Under the pieces are notes generated by a model, which was not told the DNA's origin, made no database searches, and worked only from the letters and a program-made list of their open reading frames with translations. DNA of 64,000 nucleotides from Pristiophorus japonicus. Taxonomy: Eukaryota. The stretch is taken from positions 16,802,001 to 16,866,000 of the forward strand of contig NC_091999.1 of the NCBI RefSeq assembly GCF_044704955.1, read 5' to 3'. The position numbers and the translations under genes are program-made. Shown here piece after piece: positions 13,046-54,488 of the stretch; the stretch's first letter is position 1, and the number at the start of each line of letters is the position of its first letter.

Positions 13046-13678
13046 TAGTCTATAAATGTAAGCTTTTTCCTTTGTTCGTTAGCGTGGAGATACCCATGCC
13101 TGGTTACACGTGCTCCATCTGTGACTATACTCCACTTGTAAATTGATTAGAAACAGAAGATTTAATTCGTTACGACTCAAGTGAACAAACAGAAGTTTGT
13201 TTTAAATCAACACTTGGTTCTTTTTTTGAAGTTTGGAAATTCAAAACTTCCTTAGGAATTAAAAATCCGTCAAAACAGCTGAAATCATTCGAAAAGCTAT
13301 CATTATTAACCTTGAATAAAACATAGCTTAGTTCATTTCAATAGCTCCTATTTAATTCGGAACAATATTTTATTAACTAAACAATACAGAACAGATAAAA
13401 TAAAACAAAGTAGCACATGCTTACAGAACACAGTAAATTACATCATTGTTACCTTCAGGTGTTTTTCCAAATGACTAAAAATACTGAATATGAGTGGAGA
13501 AACATTGATTCAATTTGCTTAAATGTGAAAAAACAAAGTGCTTTGAGAAATTTCAAACCAAGTATCAGGCACATGGCAACCGTAACTTCAAGGCTGAAGT
13601 TTATCTTTACCGCAGGGAAAGGGTTCACAGCCAGATAGGGAATGGAAGACCAGCAGGAAGAGTAGAGCAAGGAAGGTA

Positions 13679-14341
13679 GTGCAGGGGTCCCCTGCGGTCA
13701 TCCCCCTGCAAAACAGATACACCGCTTTGGGTACTGTTGAGGGGAATGACTCATCAGGGGAGGGCAGCAGCAGCCAAGTTCATGGCACCGTGGCTGGCTC
13801 TGCTGCACAGGAGGGCAAGAAAAAGAGTGGGAGAGCGATAGTGATAGGGGATTCAATTGTGAGGGGAATAGATAGGCGTTTCTGCGGCCGCAACCGAGAC
13901 TCCAGGATGGTATGTTGCCTCCCTGGTGCAAGGGTCAAGGATGTCTCGGAGCGGGTGCAGGACATTCTGAAATGGGAGGGAGAACAGCCAGTTGTCGTGG
14001 TGCACATTGGTACCAACGACATAGGCAAAAAAAGGGATGAGGTCCTACGAAACGAATTTAAGGAGCTAGGAGCTAAATTAAAAAGTAGGACCTCAAAAGT
14101 AGTAATCTCGGGATTGCTACCAGTGCCACGTGATAGTCAGAGTAGGAATCGCAGGATAGCGCAGATGAATACGTGGCTTGAGCAGTGGTGCAGCAGGGAG
14201 GGATTCAAATTCCTGGGGCATTGGGACCGGTTCTGGGGGAGGTGGGACCAGTACAAACCGGACGGTCTGCACCTGGGCAGGACTGGAACCAATGTCCTCG
14301 GGGGAGTGTTTGCTAGTGCTGTTGGTGAGGATTTAAACTAA
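13679..14341 (+). CDS. CR1 ORF1 C-terminal SGNH/GDSL esterase domain (N-terminus missing)
   Basis: IVIGDS, HIGTND and DGLHL blocks of the SGNH hydrolase fold, known in CR1-type ORF1p. Confidence 0.93.
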   Translation: MQGSPAVIPLQNRYTALGTVEGNDSSGEGSSSQVHGTVAGSAAQEGKKKSGRAIVIGDSIVRGIDRRFCGRNRDSRMVCCLPGARVKDVSERVQDILKWEGEQPVVVVHIGTNDIGKKRDEVLRNEFKELGAKLKSRTSKVVISGLLPVPRDSQSRNRRIAQMNTWLEQWCSREGFKFLGHWDRFWGRWDQYKPDGLHLGRTGTNVLGGVFASAVGEDLN

Positions 14342-17325
14342 TATGGCAGGGGGATGGGAACCAATGCAGGGAGACAGAGGGAAACAAAAAGGAGCCAAAA
14401 GCAAAAGACAGAAAGGAGAGGAGGAAAAGTGTAGGGCAGAGAAACCCAAGGCAAAGAACAAAAAGGGCCACTGTACAGCAAAATTCTAAAAGGACAAAGG
14501 GTGTTAATAAAACAAGCCTGAAGGCTTTGTGTCTTAATGCAAGGAGTATCCGCAATAAGGTGGATGAATTAATTGTGCAAATAGATGTTAACAAATATGA
14601 TGTGATTGGGATTACGGAGACGTGGCTCCAGGATGATCAGGGCTGGGAACTCAACATTCAGGGGTATTCAACATTCAGGAAGGATAGAATAAAAGGAAAA
14701 GGAGGTGGGGTAGCATTGCTGGTTAAAGAGGAGATTAATGCAATAGTTAGGAAAGACATTAGCTTGGATGATGTGGAATCTATATGGGTAGAGCTGCAGA
14801 ACACCAAAGGGCAAAAAACGTTAGTAGGAGTTGTGTACAGACCTCCAAACAGTAATAGGGATGTTGGGGAGGGCATCAAACTGGAAATTAGGGGTGCATG
14901 CAATAAAGGTGTAGCAGTTATAATGGGTGACTTTAATATGCACATAGATTGGGCTAGCCAAACTGGAAGCAATACGGTGGAGGAGGATTTCCTGGAGTGC
15001 ATAAGGGATGGTTTTCTAGACCAATATGTTGAGGAACCAACTAGGGGGGAGGCCATCTTAGACTGGGTGTTGTGTAATGAGAGAGGATTAATTAGCAATC
15101 TCATTGTGCGAGGCCCCTTGGGGAAGAGTGACCATAATATGGTGGAATTCTGCATTAGGATGGAGAATGAAACAGTAAATTCAGAGACCATGGTCCAGAA
15201 CTTAAAGAAGGGTAACTTTGAAGGTATGAGGCGAGAATTGGCTAGGATAGATTGGCGAATGATACTTAGGGGGTTGACTGTGGATGGGCAATGGCAGACA
15301 TTTAGAGACCGCATGGATGAAGTACAACAATTGTACATTCCTGTCTGGCGTAAAAATAAAAAGGGGAAGGTGGCTCAACCGTGGCTATCTAGGGAAATCA
15401 GGGATAGTATTAAAGGCAAGGAAGTGGCATACAAATTGGCCAGAAATAGCAGCGAACCTGGGGACTGGGAGAAATTTAGAACTCAGCAGAGGAGGACAAA
15501 GGGTTTGATTAGGACAGGGAAAATGGAGTACGAGAAGAAGCTTGCAGGGAACATTAAGGCGGATTGCAAAAGTTTCTATAGGTATGTAAAGAGAAAAAGG
15601 TTGGTGAAGACAAACGTAGGTCCCCTGCAGTCAGAATCAGGGGAAGTCATAACGGGGAACAAAGAAATGGCGGATCAATTGAACAAGTACTTTGGTTCGG
15701 TATTCACTAAGGAGGATACAAACAACCTTCCGGATATAAAAGGGGTCAGAGGGTCTAGTAAGGAAGAGGAACTGAGGGAAATCTTTATTAGTCGGGAAAT
15801 TGTGTTGGGGAAATTGATGGGATTGAAGGCAGATAAATCCCCAGGGCCTGATGGCCTGCATCCTAGAGTACTTAAGGAGGTGGCCTTGGAAATAGCGGAT
15901 GCATTGACAGTCATTTTCCAACATTCCATTGACTCTGGATCAGTTCCTATGGAGTGGAGGGTAGCCAATGTAACCCCACTTTTTAAAAAAGGAGGGAGAG
16001 AGAAAACAGGGAATTATAGACCGGTCAGCCTGACCTCAGTAGTGGGTAAAATGATGGAATCAATTATTAAGGATGTCATAGCAGTGCATCTGGAAAATGG
16101 TGACATGATAGGTCCAAGTCAGCATGGATTTGTGAAAGGGAAATCATGCTTGACAAATCTTCTGGAATTTTTTGAGGATGTTTCCAGTAAAGTGGACAAA
16201 GGAGAACCAGTTGATGTGGTATATTTGGACTTTCAGAAGGCTTTCGACAAGGTCCCACACAAGAGATTAATGTGCAAAGTTAAAGCACATGGGATTGGGG
16301 GTAGTGTGCTGACGTGGATTGAGAACTGGTTGTCAGACAGGAAGCAAAGAGTAGGAGTAAACGGGTACTTTTCAGAATGGCAGGCAGTGACTAGTGGAGT
16401 GCCGCAAGGTTCTGTGCTGGGGCCCCAGCTGTTTACATTGTACATTAATGATTTAGACGAGGGGATTAAATGCAGTATCTCCAAATTTGCGGATGATACT
16501 AAGTTGGGTGGCAGTGTGAGCTGCGAGGAGGATGCTATTAGGCTGCAGAGTGACTTGGATAGGTTAGGTGAGTGGGCAAATGCATGGCAGATGAAGTATA
16601 ATGTGGATAAATGTGAGGTTATCCACTTTGGTGGTAAAAACAGAGAGACAGACTATTATCTGAATGGTGACAGATTAGGAAAAGGGAAGGTGCAACGAGA
16701 CCTGGGTGTCATGGTACATCAGTCATTGAAGGTTGGCATGCAGGTACAGCAGGCGGTTAAGAAAGCAAATGGCATGTTGGCCTTCATAGCGAGGGGATTT
16801 GAATACAGGGGCAGGGAGGTGTTGCTACAGTTGTATAGGGCCTTGGTGAGGCCACACCTGGAGTATTGTGTACAGTTTTGGTCTCCTAACTTGAGGAAGG
16901 ACATTCTTGCTATTGAGGGAGTGCAGCGAAGGTTCACCAGACTGATTCCCGGGATGGCGGGACTGACCTATCAAGAAAGATTGGATCAATTGGGCTTGTA
17001 TTCACTGGAGTTCAGAAGAATGAGAGGGGACCTCATAGAAACGTTTAAAATTCTGACGGGTTTAGACAGGTTAGATGCAGAAAGAATGTTCCCAATGTTG
17101 GGGAAGTCCAGAACCAGGGGTCACAGTCTGAGGATAAGGGGTAAGCCATTTAGGACCGAGATGAGGAGAAACTTCTTCACCCAGAGAGTGGTGAACCTGT
17201 GGAATTCTCTACCACAGAAAGTAGTTGAGGCCAATTCACTAAATATATTCAAAAGGGAGTTAGATGAAGTCCTTACTACTCGGGGGATCAAGGGTTATGG
17301 CGAGAAAGCAGGAAGGGGGTACTGA
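14329..17325 (+). CDS. CR1 ORF2: APE endonuclease plus reverse transcriptase (frame open from 14329; no AUG before the endonuclease core)
   Basis: LNARS, ITETW, YRPP, MGDFN, SDHN (APE); [21 protein letters not shown] (RT). No stops between 14329 and the terminator at 17325. Confidence 0.97.
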   Translation, partial: GFKLIWQGDGNQCRETEGNKKEPKAKDRKERRKSVGQRNPRQRTKRATVQQNSKRTKGVNKTSLKALCLNARSIRNKVDELIVQIDVNKYDVIGITETWLQDDQGWELNIQGYSTFRKDRIKGKGGGVALLVKEEINAIVRKDISLDDVESIWVELQNTKGQKTLVGVVYRPPNSNRDVGEGIKLEIRGACNKGVAVIMGDFNMHIDWASQTGSNTVEEDFLECIRDGFLDQYVEEPTRGEAILDWVLCNERGLISNLIVRGPLGKSDHNMVEFCIRMENETVNSETMVQNLKKGNFEGMRRELARIDWRMILRGLTVDGQWQTFRDRMDEVQQLYIPVWRKNKKGKVAQPWLSREIRDSIKGKEVAYKLARNSSEPGDWEKFRTQQRRTKGLIRTGKMEYEKKLAGNIKADCKSFYRYVKRKRLVKTNVGPLQSESGEVITGNKEMADQLNKYFGSVFTKEDTNNLPDIKGVRGSSKEEELREIFISREIVLGKLMGLKADKSPGPDGLHPRVLKEVALEIADALTVIFQHSIDSGSVPMEWRVANVTPLFKKGGREKTGNYRPVSLTSVVGKMMESIIKDVIAVHLENGDMIGPSQHGFVKGKSCLTNLLEFFEDVSSKVDKGEPVDVVYLDFQKAFDKVPHKRLMCKVKAHGIGGSVLTWIENWLSDRKQRVGVNGYFSEWQAVTSGVPQGSVLGPQLFTLYINDLDEGIKCSISKFADDTKLGGSVSCEEDAIRLQSDLDRLGEWANAWQMKYNVDKCEVIHFGGKNRETDYYLNGDRLGKGKVQRDLGVMVHQSLKVGMQVQQAVKKANGMLAFIARGFEYRGREVLLQLYRALVRPHLEYCVQFWSPNLRKDILAIEGVQRRFTRLIPGMAGLTYQERLDQLGLYSLEFRRMRGDLIETFKILTGLDRLDAERMFPMLGKSRTRGHSLRIRGKPFRTEMRRNFFTQRVVNLWNSLPQKVVEANSLNIFKRELDEVLTTRGIKGYGEKAGRGY

Positions 17326-19033
17326 AGTTTCATGTTCAGCCATGAACTCATTGAATGGCGGTGCAGGCTAGAAGGGCTGAATGGCCTGCTCCTGCACCTA
17401 TTTTCTATGTTTCTATGTTTCTATGTTTCTATGTAAAACAAACTCGCCTGACTTTCAGTGTTGCACAGCTTGCCCCAGTCAAAATATACCAACAGCGTCT
17501 TTAACTTCAAAATGTAAATCATAAAGATCCCCTGCTACTAGTTCCACAATCTGAATTGAAATGAACATACTGAACATATCCACACTTGCTTAAAACTCCC
17601 AACATCCAAGACAACAAAGGGTTAAACGGCTTTTAGCTCCATGCAGAGAAAAGTGGGTGAAGCTAAAACAAACATAACAGACGCTTTTTTCAAAGACAGA
17701 CTTTCAGACAAAAGGAATACTGTAAATTCTTAAACATTCATGGTCAGGAAAACTTCCACTCTAATACAATTCACACAAACTGAAATTCCAGCATCCTTTC
17801 AGGTTCCTTTCACTCAGTAATCTTGTGCTTTATTTTTCTCGGCACAGAAACTGACAGATTCAGTGTTGGTTTCAACTTCAAGTTTCCTTTTTTCGCCTTT
17901 TAAATTGTCATCTGAGCAACTTATTCCCTCATTCTGTTTTTTCCTTCCTTTGCTGAGTTCTCGGCTGGGTTAACTTGCAGCTTAGATCTTTTTCCCTCTC
18001 TGTCTCGCCTGTTCCTTATGCTTCTCCTCTCTCACCTGTTAATTTCTCAAGTCTGTGCGCAGAGGTGGGTTGCATAAGCCAATATAAGCTTCCCTTTGTC
18101 AAATTGGGACTTGCCCTCGTCAATTTGACTCTGGACCCAATCGACCGCTTTCGGTATGAGTCACCTTGTGGACTCGCGAGGAATGATGGCAAGTGAGTGG
18201 TAGGGAGCAGCTTCCCATGTTCATTGTCCCTGGCACGTTCTGTTAGGTTAGCCATGCTTAGCAAACCCATCGCTCAACTACTGGTAGGAGATTAGTCGTC
18301 CATCTCCCAGAGATTCTCCATCCTGGATTGATAGCCTGGCCAAGTAAAACTAATTGGCCACAGATCTCCGGACCCCAGTTCCACTGAACAAAATGTTGAT
18401 TAATTACTATCCGTCAAGTCAATTTGTTGAGTTTTTGGGTCTGTGCCAATTAACCCTTTCACGCCTAAGTTCAGAAAGCTTTGACTTAACTCATATTGGT
18501 GACAATAATTATATTTTATTCAGTGAAATTGAGAGACTACTATTCACCAAAACCCTCATCCCAACTCCTCTTGCTCCTCTGCTCTCCAACCATCTTCATC
18601 CCAACTCGTTTCACCCTTATTCTCCACCCTCACTTACCCCTCCTCTTAAACCCCTCTCATCTTCCATTCATTTCAATTGAAAGGAAACCGAGAGATTGTA
18701 CCAGTCAGGATTTGAAAGATATTTACAACAGATTCTACAGGTTCTTAAACTTATGGTCTTCCTATATTCTGTTCACGTGATCAGTTAGAAAACAGACATT
18801 CTCCTGTGAATACAGAGCTGGACGATTGGGCTGTGATGTGTTTACTTGTTCATCTTGGTGACTCTAAAGCTTTGCCAATTAATTAATTAATTGATGTAAT
18901 CGGTTTACTTGTTCATCTTTTGTTAAATACATTTCCTGAGTGGATTCAAATTAAAATTAAAACCAGTTTTGCAGCCATGATGCTCCATTCACACATCGAA
19001 GGTGAGCGAGATGCTGTGGGGCACACGCTAAGT

Positions 19034-20802: not shown

Positions 20803-23800
20803 TAAGAATTAGGAACAGGAGTAGGCCATCTGGCCCCTCGAGCCTGCTCCGCCACTCAACAAGATTATAGCTGATCTGGCAGTGGACTCAGCTCCACTTA
20901 CCCGCCCGCTCTCCATAACCCTTAATTCCCTTATTGATTAAAAATCTATCTGTGACTTGAATAAATTCAATGAGCTAGCCTCAACTGCTTCCTTGGGAAG
21001 AGAATTCCACAGATTCACAACCCTGTCGGAGAAGAAATTCCTTCTCAACTCGGTTTTAAATTGGCTCCCCCGTATTTTGAGGCTGTGCCCCCTAGTTCTA
21101 GTCTCCCTGACCAGTGGAAACAACCTTTCTGCCTCTATCTTGTCTATCCCTTTCATTATTTTAAATGTTTCTATCAGATCACCCCTCATCCTTCTGAACT
21201 CCAACGAGTAAAGACCCAGTCTACTCAATCTATCGTCATAAGGTAACCCCCTCATCTCCAGAATGAGCCTCATGAATCGTCTCTGTACCCGCTCCAAAAC
21301 CAGTACATCCTTCCTTAACTAAGGTGACCAAAACTGCACGCAGTACTCCAGCTGCGGCCTCACCAATACCCTGTACAGTTGCAGCAGCACTTCACTGCTA
21401 TTGTACTCCATCCCTCTCGCAATGAAGGCCAACATTCCATTCGCCTTCCTGATTACCTGCTGCATCTGCAAACTAACTTTTTGAGTTTCATGCACAAGGA
21501 CCCCCAGGTCCCTCTGCACCACAGCATCTTGTAATTTCTGCCCATTCAAATAATATTCCCTTTTACTGTTTTTTTTTCCCCAAGGTGGATGACCTCACAT
21601 TTTCCGACATTGTATTCCATTTGCCAAACCTTAGCCCATTCGCTTAACCTATCTCAATCTCTTTGCAGCCTCTCTGCGTCCGCTACACAACCCGCTTTCC
21701 CACTAATCTTTGTGTCATCTGCAAATTTTTTTACAATACACTCTGTCCCTTCTTCCAGATCATCTATGTATATTGTACACAGTTGTGGTCCCAGCACCGA
21801 TCCCTGTGGCACACCACTAACCACCGATTTCCAACCCGAAAAGGACCCATTTATCCCGACTCTCTGCTTTCTATTAGCCAGCCAATTCTCTATCCATGCT
21901 AATACATTTCCTCTGACTCCGCGTACCTTTATCTTCTGCAGTAACCTTTTGTGTGGCACCTTATCAAATGCCTTTTGGAAATCTAAATACACCACATCCA
22001 TCGGTACACCTCTATCCACCATGCTCGTTATATCCTCAAAGAATTCCAGTAAATTAGTTAAACATGATTTCTCCTTCATGAATCCATGTTGCGTCTGCTT
22101 GATTGCACAATTCCGATCTAAATGTCCCCCTATTTCTTCCTTAATGATAGCTTCAAGAATTTTCCCCACTGCAGATGTTAAACTAACCGGCCTATCGTGA
22201 CCTGCCTTTTGTTTGCCCCCTTTTTTAAACAGAGGCGTTACATTAGCTGCTTTCCAATCCGATGGTACCTCCCCAGAGTCCAGAGAATTTTGGTAGATTA
22301 TAACGAATGCATCTGCTATAACTTCCGCCATCTCTTTTAATACACTGGGATGCATTTCATCAGGAACAGGGGACTTGTCTACCTTGAGATCCATCAGCCT
22401 GTCCAGCACTACCCCCCTAGTGACAGTGATTGTTTCAAGGTCCTCCCTTCCCACATTTCCGTGACCATCAATTTTTGGCATGGTTTTTTTGTCTTCCACT
22501 GTGAAGATCGAAGCAAAATAATTGTTTAAGGTCTCAGCCATTTCCACATTTCCCATTATTAAATCCCCGTTCTCATCTTCTAACGGACCAACATTTACTT
22601 TAGTCACTCTTTTCCGTTTTATATATTGGTAAAAGCTTTTACTATCTGTTTTTATGTTTTGCGCAATTTTACTTTCGTAATCTATGTTTCATTTCTGTAT
22701 TGCTTTCTTAGTCATTCTTTGCTGTCATTTAAAATTTTCCCAATCTTCTAGTTTCCCACTAACCTTGGCCACCTTATACGCATTGGATTTTAATTTGATA
22801 CTCTCCTTTATTTCCTTGGTTATCCACGGCTGATTATCCCTACTCTTCACGCCCTTCTTTTTCACTGAAATATATTTTTGTTGAGCACTATGAAAGAGCT
22901 CCTCAAAAGTCCTCCACTGTTCCTCAATTGTGCCACCGTTTAGTCTGTGTTCCCAGTCTATTTTACCCAACTCTGCCCTCATCCCACTATAGTCCCCTTT
23001 GTTTAAGCATAGTATGCTCCTTTGAGTCACTACTTCTTCACCCTCAATCTGTATTACAAATTGAACCATACTGTGAACACTCATTCCAAGAGGATCATTT
23101 ACTGGGAGATCATTTATTATTCCTGTCTTATTACACAGGACCAGATATAAGATAGCTTGCTCCCTTGTTGCTTCTCTAACATACTGTTCGAAGTAACAAT
23201 CCCATATGCATTCTATGAATTCCTCCTCAAGGCTACCCCATTTGACCAATCGATATGTGGGTTAATATCCCCCATGATTACTGCCGTTCCTTTTTCACAT
23301 GCCTCCATTATTCCCTTGCTTGTTGTCCGCCCCACCGTGAAGTTATTATTTGGGGACCTATAAATACGCCCACCAGTGACTTTTTTCCCTTACTATCTCT
23401 AATCTCCACCCACAATGATTCAACTTTTTGTTCATTAGAGCCAATATCGTCTCCACAACTGCCCTGATATCATCCTTTATTAACAGAGCTATCCCACCTC
23501 CTTTCTCTTCTTGTCTATCTTTCCGAATTGTCAGATACCCCTGCATGTTTAATTCCCAGTCTTGGCCACCCTGCAACCACGTTTCTATGATGGCCACCAA
23601 ATCATACCCATTTGTAATGATTTGTGCCATCAACTCATTTACTTTGTTTCGAATGCTGCGTGCGTTTAGGTAAAGCGTTTTAATACTCGTTTTAAAACCA
23701 TGATTTTAAGTTTTGACCCCTCCTGCAACCCCTTTATATTCATTCATATTGTCCCTTCCTATCACCTTGTGGTTTACACTTACTCCAGTGCTGCTCTGCT

Positions 23801-24645
23801 CTGTTGCCGCCTGCCTTTTGCATCCTTTCTTGGGGTTCTGTTCATCTGAGCTCTCAACCACTCTAACTAGCTCAGAGCCCTCTCCTGGGTTCCCATCCCC
23901 CTGCCAAGCTAGTTTAAAGCCCTTCCAACCGCACTATCAAAACCACCCGCGAGAACATTGGTCCCGTCTCTCTTGAGGTGTAACCTGTCCGACTTGTACA
24001 GATCACACCTACTCCAGAAGCGGTCCCAATTGTTCAGGAAACTAAAGCCCTCCCTCCTACACCAATGCCCCAGCCACGTATTTATCTGACTAGCCTTCCT
24101 ATTTCTACCCTCACTAGTACGTGGCACTGGTGGTAATCCCGAGATTACCACCTTTGAGGTCCTTGCTTTCAATCTTACCCCTAGCTCCCTAAACTCAGCT
24201 TTCAGGACCTCACCCCTCTTTCTACCTATGTCGTTGGTACCAATGTGGACCACAACCACTGGCTATTCCCCTTCCCTCCCCAGAATGCCCTGCAGTCGCT
24301 CAGTTACATCATTGACCCTTGCACCAGGGAGGCAACACACCATCCTGATGTCACTTTTGCTGCCGCAGAAGCGCCGATCTGCTCCCCTAACTCTTGAATC
24401 TCCTATCACTATAGCCCTTCCCGTTTTCTTCCTCCCCCCCTGTGCAGCTGAGCCACCCACGGTGCTGTGGACTTGGCCCTGGCTGCACTCCCCAGAGTCA
24501 TCACCGCCATCGCCAGTAGTCAGAATAGAGTACTGGTTTGAGAGCGGGATAGTCTCAGGGGACTTCTGCACAACCTGCCTGGCCATACTCTTGTGCGCGA
24601 CGGTCACCAATTCCCTATCCTCCTGTACCCTTTTAATCTGTGGGG
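20803..24645 (-). mobile_element. Near full-length older CR1 LINE (ORF1 esterase plus frameshifted ORF2)
   Basis: ORF1 pieces 24263-24610 (IVIGDS) and 23909-24259 (HIGTND); ORF2 pieces from 23633 to 20938; 3' UTR at 20803-20935. Confidence 0.96.
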
Positions 24646-24877
24646 TTTGCCTTTATTATTCATTATTTCCACCCAAACTGTTTCAGCACAGAGCCAATTT
24701 AATTAACTGGTTCTCCTCAGATAAAAAAGATCACAAATATTTAATTGCAGTTCCTAACCAAAGATTTCTTAAAGAAAAAAAATACTCATCAATCCACCAG
24801 CCAATCACTTACCTGCTTGGCTGTGACGTCACACTTCGATTTCAACTTTTTTTTTTTACTTTATGTTTTTGGTGAAG

Positions 24878-25645
24878 CTGGCCTCCTGACTGCAGCCCTT
24901 TGTACTCCCGCGTCCACTCAGGTCTTGTGATGTTGGCCTCCTCCAGACTGTGGCCCTTTGTACTCCCGCGTCCACTCAGGTCTTGTGATGCTGGCCTCCT
25001 CCAGACTGTGGCCCTTTGTACTCCCGCGTCCACTCAGGTCTTGTGATGCTGGCCTCCTCCAGACTGTGGCCCTTTGTACTCCCACGTCCACTCAGGTCTT
25101 GTGATGTTGGCCTCCTCCAGACTGTGGCCCTTTGTACTCCCGCGTCCACTCAGGTCTTGTGATGCTGGCCTCCTGACTGCAGTCCTTTGTACTCCCACGT
25201 CCACTCAGGTCTCGTGATGCTGGCCTCCTCCTGACTGCTGCCCTTTGTACTCCCGCGCTCGCTCAGGTCTCACGATGCTGGCCTCCTCCTGACTGCAGCC
25301 CTTTGTACTCCCGCGCTCGCTCAGGTCTCATGATGCTGGCCTCCTCCTGACTGCCGCCCTTTGTACTCCCGCGTCTGCTCAGGTCTCGCGATGCTGGCCT
25401 CCTCCAGACTGTGGCCCTTTGTACTCCCATGTCCGCTCAGGTCTCGCGATGCTGGCCTCCTCCAGACTGTGGCCCTTTGTACTCCCGCGTCCGCTCAGGT
25501 CTCACGATGCTGGCCTCCTCCAGACTGTGGCCCTTTGTACTCCCGCTCTCGCTCAGGTCTTACGATGCTGGCCTCCTCCTGACTGCTGCCCTTTGTACTC
25601 CCGTGCTCGCTCAGGTCTCACGATGCTGGCCTCCTCCAGACTGTT
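24878..25645. repeat. 58-bp CpG-containing minisatellite x~13
   Basis: Unit GCTGGCCTCCTCCAGACTGTGGCCCTTTGTACTCCCGCGTCCACTCAGGTCTTGTGAT. Confidence 0.96.
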
Positions 25646-32896: not shown

Positions 32897-34405
32897 GTGT
32901 AGAACTGAACCCAGCCAGAATCAGTATCTTCAGGGGAGGGGAACCAGTGAGTGTAGAACTGAACCCAGCTAGAGACAGCACTTCAGGGGAGCGGAACCAG
33001 TGAGTGTAGAACTGAACCCAGCCAGAGTCAGTACCTTCAGGGGAGGGGAACCAGTGAGTGTAGAACTGAACCCAGCTAGAGACAGCACTTCAGGGGAGGG
33101 GAACCAGTGAGTGTAGAACTGAACCCAACCAGTGTCAGCACTTAAGGGGAGGGGAAACAGTGAGTGTAGAACTGAACCCAGCCAGAGTCAGTACCTTCAG
33201 GGGAAGGGAACCAGTGAGTGTAGAACTGAACCCAACCAGTGTCAGCACTTCAGGGGAGGGGAACCAGTGAGTGTAAAACTAAATACAGCCAGAGTCAGTA
33301 CCTTCAGGGGAAGGGAACTAGTGAGTGTAGAACTGAACCCAGCCAGAGTCAGAACCTTCAGGGGGGAGGGGGAGAGCCCGAGTTGGGGGAGGGGGAGAGC
33401 CCATGTTGGGAGAGAGGGGGAGGGGGAGAGTCCGCGGTTGGGGGAGGGGGGGAGACGGGGTTGGGAGAGAGGGGGGGAAGTGGAGAGCCGGGATTGGGGA
33501 AGGGGGAGAGATGTCGTTGGGAGAGAGGGGGAGGGGGAGAGCCCGGGTTGTGGGAGAGGAAGAGCCCGAGTTGGGGGAGCCCCAGTTGGGGAAGCCCGAG
33601 TTGGGGGAGAGAGGGAAGGAGAAAGACCGAGCTGGGGGAGGGGAGAGGGGTGGAGAGGGAGAGCCCGGAGAGGGGGAGAGCCCGAGTTGGGGGCGGGGGG
33701 ATGGGGAGAGCCCGAGTTGGGGAGAGGGGAAGGAGGAGACCCCGAATTGAGGGGGAGGGGGAGAGCCCGAATTGAGGGGGAGGGGGAGAGACGTGGTCGG
33801 GGGAGAGAGGGAGGGGGAGAGCCTGAGTTGGGGGAGAGAGGGAGGGGGAGAGCCCGAGTTGGGGGAGAGAGGGAGGGGAGAGCCCGAGTTGAGGCAGAGG
33901 GGGTGTGTGAGATTCTGAGTTGGGGGAGAGGGGGAGGGGGGCCCGAGTTGGGGGAGAGGGAGTGGGAGGGGGAGAGCCCGAGTTGGGGGAGAGAGGGAGG
34001 GGACGAGCCAGAGTTGAGGGAGAGGGGGAGGCTGAGATTTTGAGTTGAGGAGAGGGAAACGGGGCGAGACCGAGTTGGGGGAGAGGGAGAGGGAGGGGGA
34101 GTGCCCGAGTTTGAGGGGAGGGGGAGAGCCCGAGTTATTTCGGGAGGAGGGGAGAGCCCGAGTTTTTTGGGGGGAGGGGAAGGGGAGGAGCCTGAGTTGT
34201 GGGGAGGAGAGGAGTCCGAGTTGGGGCGGAGGGGAGGAGCCAGAGTCGGGGGGGAGGGGAGGGTGGAGTAACCCGAATCGGGGGAAGGGGAGGGTGGAGG
34301 AGTCCGAGTCGGGAGTGGAGGGAGCCCGAATCCGGGGGTGGTGTGTGGGAGGGGAGGGAACCCGAGTTGGGTGGGAGGTGTGGAAGACCGAATTGGGGGA
34401 GGGGG
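32897..34405. repeat. ~54-bp minisatellite x~8.5 (32897-33362) grading into a G-rich GAGCCCGAGTTGGGGG degenerate array
   Basis: Direct inspection; extreme purine and G skew on the plus strand. Confidence 0.95.
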
Positions 34406-34407
34406 AT

Positions 34408-36919
34408 TGTTGTGTATCTGTAAAGCATGAACTCCCATGCTTCGCCACCAGGGAGCACATCCCCTGAAATCCCAATGGATCCCAACATGCCTTGGGAGCA
34501 CTGTATATAAGCCGGCCCCTACGGTCTGTTCCTCACTCTGGAGTGTCTTAATAAAGACTGAGGTCACTATTACTTTCACCTCCCTGTGTGCAGTCCCATC
34601 TGTGTTTGGAACACAATAACTGGCGACGAGAATACGAATCCAACACAAAGATGCAGCAAACTGTGGGCATGCTGGAGCAGAGCTCGGAGAGTGGGGACTG
34701 GGAAGCCGATGGCGAACGGCTAGACCAGTACTTTGTAGCCAACGAGCTGGACGGAGAAGGAAGCACTGCAAAAAGGAGAAACGTCCTCCTCACGGTCTGC
34801 GGGGCACCGACCTATAGCCTCATGAAGGATCTTCTGGCTCCAGTGAAACCACAGACAAGTCATATGAGGAGCTGTGTACACTGGTTCTGGAGCATCTTAA
34901 CCCGAGGTAGATTGTGCTGATGACAAGGTATCGGTTCTACACGTGCCAGCGATCTGAAGGTCAGAAAGTGGCGAGCTACATCGCCGAGCTAAGGCGACTT
35001 GCAGGACAATGTGAGTTTGATGGCTACCTGGAGCAGATGCTCAGAGAATTTTTTTTACTGGCCATTGGCCACGAGACCATCCTATGAAAACTTTTTACTG
35101 TAGAGACACCGACCCTTAGTAATGCCATTGAAATAGCACAGGCGTTTATGTCCACCAATGATAACAACAAACAAATCTCTCAGCACACAAGTGCTAGCAA
35201 TGTTCATACATAACTGGAATTGGGTTTGCGAGCAGAAATGTACAGGGCAGAAACCATGAGTCTGCAACTGCCAGCAGGCCTCAGGTGACCAAGATGACTC
35301 AGAGTCCGCAAGGCAATTAACACCTTGTTGGCATTGTGGAGGCTTCCATTCTGCCTATTCATTCCGGTTCAAAGGGTATGTTTGCAACAGCTGTGGACCA
35401 ATGGGGCACCTCCAACGAGCTTGCAGACGAGCTGCAAGTTCAGCTAAACCTGCTGACCACCACGTGGCAGAGGAATATCGGTCCATGGTGGAACAAAGCA
35501 ATTTCAAGCCTCAGAGAGAGGAGGCAGATGCTGAAGTACACGGGCTGCACACATTTTCGACAAAATGTCCACCTATATTGTTAAATGTAAAATTCAATGG
35601 CTTACACATAGCCATGGAACTGGACACTGGTGCTAGCCAATCCATCATGAGTAAAAAGATGTTTGAGAGACTGTGGTGCAATATGGCACTCATACCAACC
35701 ATGAGCCCCATGCACACGAAACTGAGAACGTACACCAAAGAGCTCATCACTGTCCTGGGCAGTGCCATAGTCAAGTTCACCAACGAGGGCATGGTGCACG
35801 AACTGCCACTCTGGATTGTCCTGGGCGATGGCCCCACACTGCTTGGAAGGAGCTGGCTGGGAAAAATCCGCTGGAACTGGGTGACATCCGAGCGCTATCA
35901 CATGTCGATCAGGCCTCGTGTACCCAGGTTCTTAAAAATGTCTTTCCCTTTTTGAGCCAGGCATTGGAAACTTTTCCGGGGCGAAGGTGTTTATCCACTT
36001 GGTCCGAGAGGCACGGCCCATTCACCACAAGGCGCGAGCGGTACCTCACATGATGAGGGAGAGAGTGGAAATCGGGCTGGACAGGCTGCAACGCGAGGGC
36101 ATCATCTCTCCAGTGGAATTCAGTGAGTGGGCCAGCCCGATTTTTCCAGTACTCAAAAGTGATAGCACGGTCAGGATTTGCAGCGATTAGAAAGTAACTA
36201 TTAATTATTTCTCGCTACAGGACCAATACTCACTACCTAAGGCAGACGACCTATTTGTGACGCAGACAGGAGGCAAGACGTTCACCAAGCTCGACCTGAC
36301 TTTGGCATACATGACGCAGGAGCTGGAGGAGTCTTCGAAGTGCCTCACCTGCATTAACACGCACAAGGGACTGTTCATCTACAACAGATGTCCTTTTGGA
36401 ATTCGATCGGCTGCAGCGATCCACCAGTGAAACATGGAGAGCCTACTCAAGTCAGTACCACGCACGGTGGTTTTTCAGTACGACATATTGTTCACGGGTC
36501 GGGACACCATCGAGCACCTACAAAACCTGGAGGAGGTCCTCCAGCGACTGGATCGCGTAGGGCTGCAGCTGAAGAGGTCGAAATGCGTCTTCATGGCAAC
36601 AGAAGTGGAGTTTTTGGGGAGAAAGATCGCGGCGGACGGCATTCGGCCCACAGACGCCAAGACAGAGGCTATCAGGAACGCGCCCAGGCCACAGAACGTC
36701 ATGGAGCTGCGGTCGTTCCTGGGACTCCTCAACTATTTTGGTAACTTCCTACCCGGGTTAAGCACCCTCTTAGAGCCCCTACATGTGTTATTGCGTAAAA
36801 GTGAGAACTGGGTATGGGGGGGAAAAAACAAGTAATTGCTTTTGAGAAAGCCAGAAACATTTATGCTCCAACAAGCTGCTTGTATTGTATAACCTGTGTA
36901 AACGACTTGTGCTAGCATG
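34408..36919 (+). mobile_element. Ty3/gypsy LTR retrotransposon, 5' half (LTR 34408-34618, PBS 34621-34630, gag, protease, RT), disabled and truncated
   Basis: LTR TGTTGTG...CACAATA with TATATAA and AATAAA; PBS TGGCGACGAG (tRNA-Ser-like, from memory); gag ERLDQYFVAN; protease MELDTGAS; RT SEWASPI and FLGLLNYF; stops at LVLAC. Confidence 0.93.
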
Positions 36920-39900: not shown

Positions 39901-42900
39901 CCCTACTCGAAGTGGGCCTTTTTTCGTGTTACGGCATACAACGGTTTTAAAAGCATCGTGAGGTGAGGTATATGTCTCCTCCAGTAACCCAATAGTCCCA
40001 CGAACCATTGTGCCTCAGCTTTATTCGTGGAGGTGGCCATTTCTTGAATTTTATTCTTCACAGGCTCGGGTATGATGCGCTCACCCCGAGACCATTGGAT
40101 CCCCAGAAACTGGACAATCTGGCTAGGGCCCTGCACCTTCTTCGGATTTATCTCCCAGCCCATATCTCACATGTGTTGGACTAAAGTAGCTAGGGCTTCT
40201 GACACCACAGCCTCGGTGGGATTTCTTATTAGTACATCATCGATGTAGTGTGCCAGTGAGACATTAGGAGCCAACGTGCACAACCAGGTCCCGGGCCACC
40301 AATCCGTGGCATAGGGTACGGCTATGTCGGTAACCTTGAGGTAGGCTTTTAAACGTGTATTGCCTCCCTTCACAAGTGAATGCAAACTGGTCCTGGGATT
40401 CTTCCGCTATTGGAATGGAGAAAAAGGCATTGGCCAGGTCGATTACCGCATACCACTCCGCACCTTCTTGAGACAGCCGCTCTGTTATAGTTACTACATC
40501 TGGGACAGCGGTTGCCAGGGGAGGGGCACATTTGTTCAGTTGTCGGTAATCCACAGTCATCCTCCAACTTTTGTTGGGTTTCTGCACACGCCAAACAGGG
40601 CTATTGTAGGGGGACACCACATGTCTAATGATTCCCGCCTCCAAGAGCCCTTGTATGGTTTCCTCTATTTCTTTGTGTCCCCCAGGTATTTGGTACTGTT
40701 TCATTGTCACTATACGCAATGGCTGTGGTATTACCACTTGTTCCCACTTTGCTTCCCCTGCAATCTCAGTGTTCGCCCGTATCCCGAATGAAAATTGCCT
40801 GAACGAGGTGTTGTGTGTGGTTCCCTTTAAAAGGTCCATCCCAATAATATGTTCCTTTACTGCCGATATTAATACCGTTACCCAGCGCAGAGACCAATTT
40901 CCCACCGCCATTCTGATAGTTGTTTGGACAGCGGGCGTTTCTGCCCCACGAAACCATTAATCATCATACAGGTCCCTGTGTGTTTCCTAGGATTTCCATG
41001 GATAATAGTAACTTCTGCCCCTGTGTCTAGTAAAGCAACATCTCTTTGTATGTTCCCCCCCGTCCCGTCAATGTATCATAATTGGAATGTGTGGCCTCAG
41101 ATCCCCGGGAACTTGGGTTGACGTGGTTCTAACAGGGAGTACTCCCGGATCCCAGTCACAACCCAGTCGAGGGGATTACTAGCCTTCCACAGCTCTTCTA
41201 CGCTGGGGTATAGACTAGTGGGAGGTGGTTTCTCCGCATCCACAGATTATCGCTATCCGACTTAGTCGCCCTTACCTCCCTCCTTTTAACCTTCCCTGTT
41301 CCCGGGACGCAGTGTTGCTTCCACATAGAATACATTGCTCCTGTTGGGATTCCATAAATTTTTTCCTTGGGGACCCCTGCTTTCAGTAAAGCCGCGTACA
41401 TGTCCCTCCGCACAATTCTTTTTTTTTGTCTTTCCTGAACTTATATCGTTCCCAGAGGTCGAACCTTGTCGCTGGTCCCGATTCCCCTCTACATTAGCCG
41501 TTCTCGACTCTCGCACACTATCTTCGACATTCTCTAACTGTCCTAACAACAGGAAAGCGTCCCCCACCCGCTTCTCTTGGGCTGGTCCCAATAATGTACG
41601 TAGCGCATCCCTCTTCATCAGCCTGCTCCGTATTCCTGCCGTAAAGAGCTCCTGATCTGGCCCCCCATATTGTTGGTGATATATTCTTCCCTGTGTTGCC
41701 ATCTTGCACAATTGTATCACACCCTCCAGCACAGTACTCCAAGGTTTTACCTTCCCTTCCCAATCAATGGCGGAGGGATATTTTTTCTGGACCCCTATAG
41801 TAACCATGTCCCATAGCGAACTTGTGCCCTGGACATTCCGTAGCATTGCTGTGATATGGTGGTCCGTAATCATAGTCCTCATTTTTGTTAATTCTTCAGG
41901 GTTAAATATTACGCCTGATGCTCCCTGATCCCAAATCCGGGTTAGCCATTCTGACAATGATTCCCGGGTTTTTGGCGAAATCGAGACCCTATTTCTTGTA
42001 ACTCACTAGTGGTGAAGTCACGCACCCCTCTAGTGGTTACCGGCTGTTCCCCATCTTGCTGTTTCGCCTTATTTATCATAAGGGTTTAGCTTTCGTGCTC
42101 GGATCATATGGGGGAGGGTTTTTAGTTTCCTCCCGTTCCCCCCCTCTCCATCTGACCATTCATATTCTGAGTCAGAGGATTACCAGATGTCTCCTTCCCA
42201 ATGAGCCGGATCCCAAGTGGGTCCAGCTACCAATGCACGTACCTTTGACCGATCTATCTGCAATTTCCGTCGTCTGGCTTTTTAATAATGTTGTACTGTC
42301 ACCAGATGGCATATTAAAGTTTCTGATTGTTCATTGAGCTTGTCCACCCGTTATTGTGCAGTGCGGACCGCTTCAGTGAGAGTCGAGTTTTGACTTTCGA
42401 AAAACTTAACAGCTGTTTTTAACTCTAGGTTTTCTGCCTCACTTTCCTTAAGTTGTTTACACATCGTCCTTAATGCTGTCAACAAAATTCATCCCATTTG
42501 TGAGGGATTACTTTTCTCCTGTGGGACGCCCGCTTCCTCCAGGAGAGACAGTACCGCGTGGGCTACGGTTCTATCTTTGCTCTGTTCCAATAACTGCATA
42601 TCCCAATGTTGTGGGGGTGCAAACTGGGCTAGCACATTGGCAAGAGAGCCAAAACCCTCATCCCTCATGCTCCACCCTGGTATTCTATACTTCTCTCCCG
42701 CAGGAGGAGACTGCTCCTTGTCTTTTCTCATAAACATTTTACCAGATCCTGTTCATGACACCAACATTTTTTGGATCGATAATAATAGACCCAGGTTCGG
42801 GATCTGGATGGATGTTAAATAAGAGACACGACAAATGAAGTAAAGATAAAACACCGTTTACTGAGGGAAAAGAAACATAATACAGTTTACAAAGAAAAGA

Positions 42901-43535: not shown

Positions 43536-43702
43536 TTTCCATGATTGGTTCCTTTGGAGGATGAGCCAAATCCTGAGGTTTCACTCGAATGTGTAACTGA
43601 AAACACCCATCCCAACGTATCATTGACTTGCAAATTGTAACTTGATCCACTTTGATTTCCTGAAACAACAGAGGCAGAGCTCCCAGAAGACAGCGACTGC
43701 TA

Positions 43703-44525
43703 GCCAAAGTGCCTTGCCCCAATCCCAGTGCACCCCTCCCCAGCCGAAGTGCCTTACTCCAGTCGCAGTTCAGGCCTCCCCCAGCCGAAGTGCCTTACCC
43801 CAGTCCCAGTGCATGCCTCCCCCATCTGAAGTGCCTTACCGCAGTCCCAGTGCCCGCCTCCCCCAGCCGAAGTGCCTTACCCCAGTCCCAGTATATGCCT
43901 CCCCTAGGCGAAGTGCCTTACCTCAGTATATGCCTCCCCCAGCCAAAGTGCCTTACCCCAGTCGCGGTGGAAGTCTCCTCCAGCCGAAGTGCCTTACCAC
44001 AGTCCCAGTGCATTCTGTCCCCAGCCGAAGTGCCTTACACCAGTCCCAGTGCATGCCTCCCCCAGCCGAAGTGCCCTACCCCAGTCCCAGTATATGCATC
44101 CCCCCGCCAAAGTGCCTTACTTCAGTCCAGTGCATGCCCCCACCCCAGCTAAATTGCCTTCCCCTTTCCCAATGCATGCCTCCCACAGCCCAAGTGCCTT
44201 ACCCTAGTCCCAGGGCACGCCTCCCCCAGCTGAAGTGCCTTACCACAGATCGAGCGTATGCCCCCCCAGCTGAAGTGTCTTACCCCAGTCCAAGTGCATG
44301 CCTCCCCCAGCCGATGTGCCTTACCGCAGTCCCAGTGCCCGCCTCTCCCAGCCGAAGTGCCTTACCCCAGTCCCAGTGCATGCCTCCCCATCTGAAATGC
44401 CTTACCCCAGTCCCAGTGTATGCATCGCGCAGCCGAAGTGCCTTACCCCAATCCCAGTGCATGCCTCCCCCATTCGAAGTGCCTTACCCCAGTCCCAGTG
44501 TATGCCTCCCCCAGCCGAAGTGCCA
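43703..44525. repeat. ~41-bp minisatellite x~20 (CAGCCGAAGTGCCTTACCCCAGTCCCAGTGCATGCCTCCCC)
   Basis: Tandem copies. Confidence 0.95.
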
Positions 44526-44559
44526 GTTTTATTTCACTGCACCACATGCATGGAATGAT

Positions 44560-44935
44560 TCGGGCCCGGATGGGGCGGGGCTTGTCGCCTGTCAGTCACA
44601 AAGTGCAGAACCAATAGTTCCCTGCGTTAATAAACCCAGGGCGGGACACACAGCAAGAGTGCGGGCCCAGGCCCGAGAGACAAAAATCCGCACCATCATC
44701 TTCACACACACCCGGGCTCGTCACCAAGAACCGAAGCACAGGCCGGTTCCAGGCCCAGTCAGTGAGCGCCCGGGGGAGCGGGCACAGCGGCCGCCATCTT
44801 GGTCAGGTTGGGGGAGAGGGCTCAGTGGTCGCCATCTTGGTTAGGGTGGGTCTCGGGGCGCATGCGCGGCCCTTTGGGCAGGGATAATGGATGGGCGGGG
44901 CTTCAGCATGTCTGTCAGTTTGATTGGACACATGT
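44560..44935 (-). promoter_or_regulatory. CpG-island promoter, probably leftward
   Basis: Two YY1 motifs CGCCATCTT (~44792, ~44830), NRF1 palindrome GCGCATGCGC (44858-44867), GC box (~44893), CCAAT on minus (~44923). Confidence 0.7.
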
Positions 44936-47487: not shown

Positions 47488-50400
47488 TATAGAAACATAG
47501 AAACATAGAAACATAGAAAATAGGTGCAGGAGTAGGCCATTCGGCCCTTCTAGCCTACACCGCCATTCAATGAGTTCATGGCTGAACATGCAACTTCAGT
47601 ACCCCCTTCCTGTTTTCTCACTATACCCCTTGATTCCCCTAGTAGTAAGGACTTCATCTAACTCCTTTTTGAATATATTTAGTGAATTGGCCTCAACAAC
47701 TTTCTGTGGTAGAGAATTCCACAGGTTCACCACTCTCTGGGTGAAGAAATTCCTCCTCATCTCGGTCCTAAATGGCTTCCCCCTTATCCTTAGACTGTGT
47801 CCCCTGGTTCTGGACTTCCCCAACATTGGGAACATTCATCCTGCGTCTAACCTGTCTAAACCCGTCAGAATTTTAAACGTTTCTATGAGGTCCCCTCTCA
47901 TTCTTCTGAACTCCAGTGAATACAAGCCCAGTTGATCCAGTCTTTTTTGATAGGTCAGTCCCGCCATCCCGGGAATCGGTCTGGTGAACCTTCGCTGCAC
48001 TCCCTCAATAGCAAGAATGTCCTTCCTTAGGTTAGGAGACCAAAACTGTACACAATACTCCAGGTGTGGCCTCACCAAGGCCCTGTACAATTGTAGCAAC
48101 ACCTCCCTGCCCCTGTACTCAATGCCCCTCGCTATGAAGGCCAACATGCCATTTGCTTTCTTAACCGCCTGCTGTAGCTGCATGCCAACCTTCAATGACT
48201 GATGTACCATGACACCCAGGTCTCTTTGCACCTCCCCTTTTCCTAATCTGTCACCATTCAGATAATAGTCTGTCTCTCTGTTTTTATCACCAAAGTGGAT
48301 AACCTCACATTTATCCATATTATACTTTATCTGCCATGCATTTGCCCACTCACCCACCCTATCCAAGTCGCTCTACAGCATCATAGCATCCTCTTCGCAG
48401 CTCACACTGCCACCCAACTTAGTGTCATCCGCAAATTTGGAGATACTACATTTAATCCCCTCATCTAAATCATTAATGTACAGTGTAAACAGCTGGGGCC
48501 CCAGCACAGAACCTTGCGGTACCCCACTAGTCACTGCCTGCCATTATGAAAAGTCCCATTTACTCCTACTCTTTGCTTCCTGTCTGACAACGAGTTCTCA
48601 ATCCATGTCAGCAAACTACCCCAATCCCATGTGCTTTAACTTTGCACATTAATCTCTTGTGTGGGACCTTGTCGAAAGCCTTCTGAAAGTCCAAATATAC
48701 CACATCACCTGGTTCTCCCTTGTCCACTCCATTGGAAACATCCTCAAAAAATTTCAGAAGATTTGTCAAGCATGATTTCCCTTTCACAAATCCATGCTGA
48801 CTTGGACTTGTTATATTACCTATTACCAAATGCACTGCTATGACATCCTTAATAATTGATTCCATCATTTTACCCACTACCCATGTCAGGCTGACCGGTC
48901 TATAATTCCCTGTTTTCTCTATCCCTCCTTTTTTAAAAAGTGGGGTTACATTGGCTACGCTCCACTCCATAGGAACTGATCCACAGTCAATGGAATGTTG
49001 GAAAATGACTGTCAATGCATCCACTATTTCCAAGGCCACCTCCTTAAGTACTCTGGGATGCAGTCCATCAGGCCCTGGGGATTTATCGGCCTTCAATCCC
49101 ATCAATTTCCCCAACACAGTTTCCCGACTAATAAGGATTTCCCTCAGTTCCTCCTCCTTACTCGACCCTCCGACCCCTTTTATATCCGGAAGGTTGTTTG
49201 TGCCCTCCTCAGTGATTACCGAACCAAAGTACTTGTTCAATTGGTCCGCCATTTCTTTGTTCCCCGTTATGACTTCCCCTGATTCTGACTGCAGGGGACC
49301 TACGTTTGTCTTTACTAACCTTTTTCTCTTTACATATCTATAGAAACTTTTGCAATCCGTCTTAATGTTCCCTGCAAGCTTCTTCTCGTACTCCTTTTTC
49401 CCTGCCCTAATCAAACCCTTTGTCCTCCTCTGCTGAGTTCTAAATTTCTCCCAGTCCCCGGGTTCGCTGCTATTTCTGGCCAATTTGTATGCCACTTCCT
49501 TGGCTTTAATGCTATCCCTGATTTCCCTTGATAGCCACGGTTGAGCCACCTTCCCTTTTTTATTTTTACGCCAGACAGGAATGTACAATTGTTGTAGTTC
49601 ATCCATGCGGTCTCTAAATGTCTGCCATTGCCCATCCACAATCAACCCCTTCAGTATCATTCGCCAATCTATCCTAGCCAATTCACGCCTCATACCTTCA
49701 AAGTTACCCTTCTTTAAGTTCTGGACCATGGTCTCTGAATTAACTGTTTCATTCTCCATCCTAATGTAGAATTCCACCTTATTATGGTCACTCTTCCCCA
49801 AGGGGCCTCGCACAACGAGATTGCTAATTAATCCTCTCTCATTACACAACACCCAGTCTAAGATGGCCTCCCCCCTAGTTGGTTCCTCGACATATTGGTC
49901 TAAAAAAACATCCCTTATGCACTCCAGGAAATCCTCCTCCAACGTATTGCTTCCAGTTTGGTTAACCCAATCTATGAGCATATTAAAGTCACCCATTATA
50001 ACTGCTGCACCTTTATTGCACGCACCCCTAATTTCATGTTTGATGCCCTCCCCAACATCACTACTACTGTTTGGAGGTCTGTACACAACTCCCACTAACG
50101 TTTTTTGTCCTTTGGTATTCTGGAGCTCTACCCATATAGATTCCACATCATCCAAGCTAATGTCCTTCCGAACTATTGCCTTAATTTGCTCCTTCACCAG
50201 CAATGCTACCTCACCTCCTTTTCCTTTTATTCTATCTTTCCTGAATGTTGAATACCCCTGGATGTTGAGTTCCCAGCCCTGATCATCCTGGAGCCACGTC
50301 TCCGTAATCCCAATCACGTCATATTTGTTAACATCTATTTGCACAGTTAATTAATCCACATTGTTGCGGATACTCCTTGCATTAAGACACAAAGCCTTCA

Positions 50401-53177: not shown

Positions 53178-53569
53178 TCATTGACAAGAATTGACGGTGT
53201 CCATCAGAACAAGGGAAATGTTGACGAAACTGGGTTTACCGCTGGATTTATTGATGGTTCTGTTGGTGATCTTCAAGGGGATCGCTTCGTGTCCCACCAC
53301 ACAGGAGTAAGAAGCGCCGCTGGCCCACTCCTCGGCTGCAACGGATAGCAGGCTGTACATGAAGAAGGATCTGCTGCCGTTCTCTGCCATCACCTCGGTG
53401 TTCTTGTAGTTGCCGGAATCCACCGGCTTGTCAGTGACGGTCCATTTGACGAAGATCTCTCGGGGGGAGAAACCTCTCACTAAGCAGGTGAGGCTGACCA
53501 ACCTCTGAGCGGAGACTTCTTCTGCCGAGGGCAGGAGGACAGACACGGCCGGTTCCCGCGGATCTTTCG
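53178..53569 (-). CDS. IGHM: IgM heavy chain CH4 exon plus secretory tailpiece
   Basis: TACAG|CG AAA; [17 protein letters not shown]...YSCVVGHEA; tail [20 protein letters not shown] (N-glycan sequon, penultimate Cys); internal donor G|GTAAA after 53240; AATAAA on minus at 53134-53139. Confidence 0.97.
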
Positions 53570-54488
53570 CTGTAGAACAGTTACAATAAAGGCCAATGAA
53601 CTTGACAGTTCCAGAGACAATGGGAAAACTTTAAATCAATACAGCAGGCGGGTTTTGGGCGTGGAGGTTTTTAAATTGTTAAAAATAGGAATCCCGACGT
53701 CAACGCGCCCACTCCCGGTTGTAATATTATATTTGAGTAAAATATTTAAATGGGACTGGAATCTTCTATTTTAACCACCATTTGGTGTTTAACTGTCGCT
53801 GGTCCGGTTTGACACACTGTGTAAATCCCTGCAGTTACAGCGAGGCGGGGACTGCTGCACCCAGGTGGTAATTGCCCTTACACCTACCTCCTGGATCCAG
53901 GGTCCCTGTCTAACCCAGCCCCCGCGATCCGAGACCTCCTGACTCGGCTTCCAATCCTCCCGTTCTCCCGGGTGGCCTGTGAGACCACCGCCCACAACTC
54001 GCCTTCCTCATTTAAATTCAGCCAATTTCAGGTGGTTAGATGTGAGAGAAATGGACACTGCGTTGAATTTTAACGCTTTTCCTTTTCCCCTCTGGGGCCT
54101 CTCTGGTTTTCCATCCCGCAGCAGAGGGAACACAATCTTTCTCTCTGAAATCTCCAAGGGTTGGTCTGGAAAATTACATAGAATTTACTGCACAGAATGA
54201 GGAGATTTGGCCAACTGGTCTATGCCGGTGTGTATGTTTCACACAAGCCTCCTCCTAGCTCACTTAATCTATTCCTAATAACATACCCTTCTATTCCTTT
54301 CTCACTAATGGACTTGTCCAGTTTCCCCTAAAATACATAATGTCAGGTCCCAGAGTGCTGAGTTCGTGGAATTACCAAACTGAATGATCAGAGCAGCCCA
54401 TTAAACACTTTATATAATGAATTGTCCCTTGCACATGCACTGGAAATAGTCACAGTATCTCACTTATTGCAACAATCTCCCCGCTCAC

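Follow-up and report, generated by a model that had tools for sequence, protein, structure and literature searches.

Two LINE copies with one junction

The window analysed here is a 64,000-nt stretch of the genome of the sawshark Pristiophorus japonicus (contig NC_091999.1), to which all coordinates refer. It contains two related LINE copies that we take to be of CR1 type, a name that comes from an earlier note on this DNA. CR1 is a major LINE of sharks, reptiles, and birds. A young copy lies on the plus strand and a divergent copy on the minus strand, with the following features.

13598..14341, plus strand: young-copy ORF1 open frame, with SGNH esterase (Pfam PF13472)
14332..14341, plus strand: heptamer TTTAAAC (14332-14338) and TAA stop (14339-14341) of the young copy, from sequence
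14344..14362, plus strand: G-block of the young copy, identical to that of the divergent copy, from sequence
14329..17325, plus strand: young-copy ORF2 of 998 codons, lying in the -1 frame and encoding endonuclease and reverse transcriptase (Pfam PF03372, PF00078)
17400..17434, plus strand: 3′ tail of short TTTCTATG-type repeats at the end of the young copy, from sequence
24882..25644, no strand assigned: 58-bp tandem repeat, 13 copies, upstream of the divergent-copy ORF1
23909..24652, minus strand: C-terminal part of ORF1 of the divergent copy, SGNH esterase domain with one internal stop at 24265-24263 (from translation; homologous to protein P0001; Pfam PF13472)
23912..23918, minus strand: slippery-type heptamer T TTA AAC of the divergent copy (from sequence), kept across nine families
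23909..23911, minus strand: ORF1 stop codon TAG of the divergent copy, directly 3′ of the heptamer, from sequence
23888..23906, minus strand: 19-nt G-rich block TGGCAGGGGGATGGGAACC of the divergent copy, after TAG and CT, a candidate stimulator, from sequence
23672..23911, minus strand: divergent-copy linker at the N-terminus of ORF2, in the -1 frame; heptamer and endonuclease motif are 82 codons apart
21654..23705, minus strand: endonuclease and reverse transcriptase region of the divergent-copy ORF2, in several broken frames (ORF list and sequence; endonuclease start translated)

The APE endonuclease (PF03372) and reverse transcriptase (PF00078) of ORF2, the SGNH esterase (PF13472) of ORF1, and the short (~8-bp) repeats that end the young copy, a mark of CR1, fit the CR1 label. 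In an ORF1 tree the element falls among proteins of turtle, lizard, bird, frog, and fish and away from a 4C1B-like clade. The young-copy ORF1 frame is shorter than the 316-codon frame present in many genomic copies, and the first methionine of its ORF2 is residue 199, inside the endonuclease. The divergent copy is dead, with stops in ORF1 (24265-24263) and in the linker (23708-23706), the latter specific to this copy. The 58-bp tandem repeat is likely its 5′ region.

The divergent copy lies within a segment duplicated on contig C23 at 97-98% identity over 2.8-3.2 kb. The copy and its flanks (~22500-25600) recur six times on that contig and also on two small contigs, at 96-98% over ~3 kb (L038-L043, L045, L046), likely as segmental duplicates, and the duplicated segment is perhaps part of an immunoglobulin cluster. 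An immunoglobulin C1-set exon with a secretory-type tailpiece end (Pfam), which we take to resemble the shark IgW/IgNAR isotype, lies at 53181-53630 on the minus strand. The window also holds further LINE ORF2 fragments with endonuclease and/or reverse transcriptase (48608-50350 and 40264-40956, both minus strand) and long open frames with no Pfam match (33242-34789, minus; 43627-44844, plus; 41286-42002, minus). The first two of these frames are in GC-richer sequence and may be repeats.

At the divergent junction the heptamer takes the last base of an Ala codon (GCT, 23920-23918) and then the Leu and Asn codons of ORF1. The first G of the G-block follows 6 nt after the heptamer, and the -1 frame reads WQGDGN there. 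The earlier note had stated that heptamer, adjoining stop, and G-rich block match those of the young copy and that the sequence farther downstream diverges, and both statements are borne out. From the heptamer to the end of the G-block 28 of 32 positions are identical, against 70% identity over the 200 nt of ORF1 before the junction, where the longest exact run is 11, and the alignment is poor beyond the G-block. The block itself is 19 nt long rather than the 18 nt reported there. That no ATG follows the stop is correct for the ORF2 frame next to it; farther on, an in-frame ATG lies at 23747, 161 nt past the stop and ahead of the endonuclease domain, and an out-of-frame ATG lies within the G-block at 23896. 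A short word from the junction is not rare in the window (3 matches with at most one mismatch versus 4.6 expected by chance). What makes it significant is that different families have it in one fixed position, at the ORF1 stop.

Conservation of the junction across nine families

The sawshark genome was searched with ORF1 stretches of six different proteins and 255 loci were fetched. The queries lacked the last ORF1 residues, so that junctions were located by homology upstream of the motif. The 260 matches comprised 233 distinct ones; nine families of at least four copies took in 213 of these, and 179 were in register, a call based on positions -36 to -11 only. Six loci found by a motif pattern search of the same genome are excluded from all counts, having been selected on the motif. 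ORF1 DNA differed by 19-43% between families in a smaller set assembled before.

Among the 179 in-register junctions the heptamer is TTTAAAC in 114, GTTAAAC in 29, TTTAAAT in 8, and another sequence in 28; the families share ancestry and one includes segmental duplicates, so these counts, and P values drawn from them, overstate independence. The commonest codon right after the heptamer is TAA or TAG in 9/9 families, and every family has TTA for the terminal Leu of ORF1. At four further ORF1 positions with invariant Leu, the same families use 4, 5, 3, and 4 codons, and only 1 of 17 four-fold ORF1 columns has a single third base in all of them. The residue before the terminal Leu is itself variable (Asp, Gly, Ala, Ser, Cys, or Glu); among the 153 copies with TTA AAY its codon ends in T 122 times, in G 29 times, and in C and A once each. 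The G-form copies sit between older and younger T-form copies in a tree built without the junction (a quick tree with moderate support), which argues that the G form was propagated by active elements. A TTACCAC heptamer in 4/9 copies of one family was set aside, as these copies are 97-99% identical and count as duplicates of one dead copy. Of the sequencing runs listed as carrying the sequence none is of RNA. Contigs from four sequencing runs show no indel at the heptamer, a kind of data that cannot reveal rare variants or expression and is therefore given no weight here; in contigs from two runs of other organisms, cover runs through the G-block and drops after 14375.

The G-block is conserved in the same manner. 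In the 146 copies that have Gly at the respective position of the -1 frame, the first Gly codon is GGG in 136 and the second in 127, compared with 36 of 92 Gly codons (39%) in the young ORF2. By family, GGG is the first Gly codon in 9/9 and the second Gly codon is G-ending in 7/9. The peptide WQGDGN is kept in 5/9 families; in the other four its Trp, Gln, Asp, or Asn is altered and the G-run stays, 8-10 nt after the heptamer. By this comparison the third positions of the Gly codons in the block are not free, and the G-run outlasts the change of the peptide, so the outcome that the earlier note had named as a refutation, conservation due to the WQGDGN peptide alone, did not arise. Judged by this comparison of copies, the ORF1/ORF2 junction carries a real conserved signal at the nucleotide level. 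The earlier note had proposed such a constraint, and it had considered the junction to fit a recoding signal; the first point holds in that synonymous positions of heptamer and G-block are fixed across families where comparable ORF1 positions vary, and recoding is the best reading of the conservation.

Entry into the ORF2 frame

The endonuclease motif could be located in 117 of the 158 in-register copies with an intact stop. Of these copies, 82 carry it at -1, 21 at +1, and 14 at 0; the 35 copies outside the -1 frame are tentatively attributed to decay of dead copies. The frame is open all the way from heptamer to endonuclease motif in 53 copies. Linker length varies from 53 to 82 codons, which indicates that the -1 frame was preserved as linkers grew or shrank, and stops are more numerous in the other two frames of the linker. 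In 143 of the 179 copies the -1 frame has a stop five codons ahead of the heptamer. Therefore, entry into ORF2 must be at the junction or later.

We consider it probable, at roughly 0.7, that the junction is a programmed -1 ribosomal frameshift site that gives an ORF1-ORF2 fusion. An X XXY YYZ heptamer is phased with ORF1 (T TTA AAC, with variants G TTA AAC and G GGA AAC), ORF2 stays open past the heptamer at -1 (for 998 codons in the young copy), and synonymous positions are conserved. A 3′ stem-loop stimulator was not found, which keeps the probability from being higher: RNAalifold gives 0 consensus pairs for 18 copies of the junction, local folding z-scores of single sequences are mostly near 0, and an Rfam scan of the junction yields one chance match (E 0.74). 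According to the frameshift model, Leu-tRNA and Asn-tRNA would occupy UUA AAC, and for most ribosomes the codon that follows would end translation, releasing ORF1p. A minority would slip one base back, re-pair on UUU AAA, and continue via a lysine-rich linker into endonuclease and reverse transcriptase, producing the fusion as a minor product. Slippage would thereby fix a high ORF1p:ORF2p ratio, as in gag-pol. The stimulus is the least certain part of the model; it might be the G-block, as a two-tier quadruplex or a protein site, perhaps together with the adjacent stop.

Alternatively, ribosomes may terminate at the end of ORF1 and restart ORF2 at a linker AUG or a non-AUG codon, with heptamer and G-block serving as a termination/re-initiation signal. 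Reinitiation is the documented route in other LINEs (PMC3894237, PMC3708506, PMC5009743, each in excerpt), the stop always adjoins the motif, and 36 of the 53 open copies, among them 21 of 27 young-family copies and the divergent copy of the window, have an in-frame ATG ahead of the endonuclease. These ATGs lie mostly at codons 19, 29, 39, 51, 54, and 57, codon 19 being the earliest recurrent position and codon 12 occurring in a single copy. However, their positions differ by family and are not shared, none is present in the six open copies of one family or the single open copy of another, and a Met is expected by chance in 75-88% of linkers this long. The best-conserved stretch of the -1 frame is open and lies upstream of every ATG. 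In addition, there is no stop-start overlap: no AUG overlaps or adjoins the ORF1 stop in the ORF2 frame, and the ATGs nearby are out of frame. The linker ATGs as such neither prove nor exclude reinitiation. The earlier note had held that the junction argues against AUG reinitiation, which is right insofar as the ATGs are unfixed and missing from some families, and too strong in view of the 36 open copies that have one. Nor would reinitiation lead one to expect that T TTA AAC, G TTA AAC, and G GGA AAC replace one another. Because the junction swaps among three documented heptamers in the correct phase, frameshifting is favoured, and we regard reinitiation as unlikely.

Bridging at the RNA level or internal entry is improbable. 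The polymerase might slip on the T/A run, the RNA might be spliced, or a G-rich element might act like an IRES; slippage of polymerases can be stimulated by G-rich tracts (PMC8310308, in excerpt), and IRES use has been raised for non-LTR ORF2 (PMC3894237, in excerpt). The runs of three T and three A are short, however, and the fixed X XXY YYZ phase to the ORF1 codons is predicted by tRNA re-pairing rather than by polymerase slippage, while for an IRES the 18 copies folded with RNAalifold offer no structure. Least probable, and largely refuted by the comparison of families, is the proposal that ORF1 merely needs its Leu-Asn end and ORF2 its WQGDGN, the nucleotide match being a by-product: LN is the commonest C-terminus among vertebrate homologues, WQGDGN persists in the five families and G-ending codons are common in the element, but the Leu and Gly codons are fixed at synonymous positions, the G-run survives in the four families with an altered peptide, LN is replaced by GN, KN, and other ends in relatives, and a requirement for WQGDGN would itself demand translation of the -1 frame from the junction.

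The G-block, known systems, and distant relatives

A G-quadruplex in the G-block 6 nt downstream is a tentative candidate for the stimulator of the proposed frameshift, to which we give somewhat less than an even chance. A two-tier G4 pattern begins 3-13 nt past the heptamer in 99 of 135 copies, versus 1-8% at other offsets. A pattern with three tiers is seen in 34 of 48 copies of the young family and is rare in other families, and G4Hunter scores at the junction are 0.5-1.5, values equalled by other ORF1 windows in most families. By this score the junction does not stand out. Long-range pairing was also considered. The young copy has an exact 11-nt complement of the G-block ~640 nt upstream, inside ORF1 (13699-13709, plus strand; -28.9 kcal/mol), and this is the best pairing partner in 9 of 14 young-family copies. 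As a general structure it was rejected, since the other seven families tested have no common partner site.

Studies on viral -1 frameshift sites provide the closest parallel for the heptamers. U_UUA_AAC, G_GGA_AAC, and A_AAA_AAC are among the most shift-prone heptamers, and G_UU(A) is the frameshift site of equine arteritis virus (PMC5009743, in excerpt). Coronavirus U_UUA_AAC, equine arteritis virus G_UUA_AAC, and retroviral gag-pol sites resemble the CR1 junction in heptamer, phase, and a polymerase ORF in the -1 frame (PMC5009743, same excerpt), and also in the ~6 nt to the downstream element. Unlike them, the CR1 junction has a G-rich tract and no stem-loop or pseudoknot that we could find, its zero-frame stop comes right after the heptamer, leaving an ORF overlap of about three codons, and its host is a non-LTR retrotransposon. 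A G-tract just after a slippery site stimulates frameshifting in synthetic constructs (PMC5009743, PMC6771820, in excerpt), with a placement like that at the CR1 junction, where the quadruplex is a prediction. Natural use of a quadruplex in frameshifting was not known as of the 2016 review, the excerpted text of which does not mention CR1 (PMC5009743).

Among LINEs, a -1 frameshift is stated to be required for ORF2 of the Dictyostelium elements TRE5-A and TRE3-A (PMC5911963, in excerpt), so that in principle such a route has a precedent in this class of element. These are likewise APE-type elements; they differ from CR1 and live in an amoeba, and the excerpt mentions neither an esterase ORF1 nor a G-block. 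SART1, with UAAUG coupling, and human L1, with AUG-independent reinitiation, share with the CR1 copies a bicistronic RNA and little ORF2p (PMC5009743, PMC3708506, PMC3894237, in excerpt). In contrast, both make a separate ORF2p, whereas the CR1 junction has neither stop-start overlap nor spacer and its ORF2 overlaps the end of ORF1 at -1. How translation of LINE ORF2 is initiated is described as an open question (PMC3894237, in excerpt), and such answers as have been documented are variants of reinitiation. We found no report of frameshifting in CR1 in the open-access literature; the original chicken and turtle CR1 papers of the 1990s may mention the overlap or suggest frameshifting. If the frameshift reading is true, the CR1 reverse transcriptase would be produced joined to the esterase ORF1p, ORF2 annotations that begin at an internal Met would be truncated, and a proposed cassette of ~40 nt that works without a hairpin would point to an unusual stimulator.

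Outside the sawshark genome the vertebrate evidence is at the protein level. The homologue set comprises 239 proteins, of which 130 distinct ones end at the expected place: 82 with LN, 12 with GN, 4 with FR, and 2 each with KN, EN, SN, QV, and TI. LN is the commonest C-terminus and is found in ray, eel, frog, turtle, lizard, and bird entries. The residue before LN is incompatible with a T-ending codon in 1 of 82 proteins (background 18%), and the residue before GN is incompatible with a G-ending codon in 0 of 12. Gln, which has no T-ending codon, stands before GN in 9 of these 12 and fits the heptamer rule. In a quick protein tree that leaves out the last four residues, the ends GN, KN, EN, and LN replace one another inside a non-vertebrate-type group. 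Where gene models continue through the junction, FKL is read there in 4 of 32 extended proteins; one of these comes from a turtle and two come from stingrays.

The zebrafish esterase ORF1 of PDB 4C1B, presumably of ZfL2-1 type, shares the SGNH esterase domain with the shark ORF1 (E 2.3e-39). The clade of this solved esterase (8 rows) has no LN, GN, KN, or EN ends and is a natural negative control. In an AlphaFold model the last four ORF1 residues form coil after the final helix. With 4C1B and its clade ending otherwise and these residues modelled as coil, the esterase fold has no need of LN.

More distant relatives come from a metagenome scan that gave 22 loci; among the four followed up, L099 and L101 carry an ORF2. 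L099 reads G GGA AAC TAA with a G7 run behind it; its ORF2 lies at -1 and has 49 open codons ahead of the first Met. L100, a close ORF1 match whose sequence ends at the stop, has G GGA AAC one codon ahead of that stop. In L101 the heptamer is missing and ORF2 lies at +1, and L102 has only an esterase with a weak ORF1 match and no heptamer. Scans of viral contigs for relatives gave 2, 0, and 1 unrelated esterase loci, and a genome-contig scan of other species gave none by protein and one chance bacterial match by pattern. It is possible, though we think it doubtful, that the esterase CR1 LINEs of jawed vertebrates and their distant relatives have made a fusion reverse transcriptase by -1 frameshifting for hundreds of millions of years, swapping U_UUA_AAC, G_UUA_AAC, G_GGA_AAC, and A_AAA_AAC, with a G-quadruplex beside the stop as stimulator. 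This would be a natural quadruplex-driven frameshift.

Some further observations concern these relatives. The distant esterase LINE at L101:960-1100 is a damaged copy or a lineage using another route. A distant ORF1 group (P0146, P0148, P0151, P0153, P0156, P0159, P0173) has Lys-Asn near the usual end, followed by a short tail. The residue before Lys-Asn is T, S, R, or Q in 7/7, which at the protein level is compatible with A AAA AAC; six proteins related to this group have no Lys-Asn. Finally, two shark-type LINE ORF1 proteins, P0006 and P0033, are deposited under the names of Pseudomonas aeruginosa and Proteus mirabilis, and these bacterial names likely reflect contamination.
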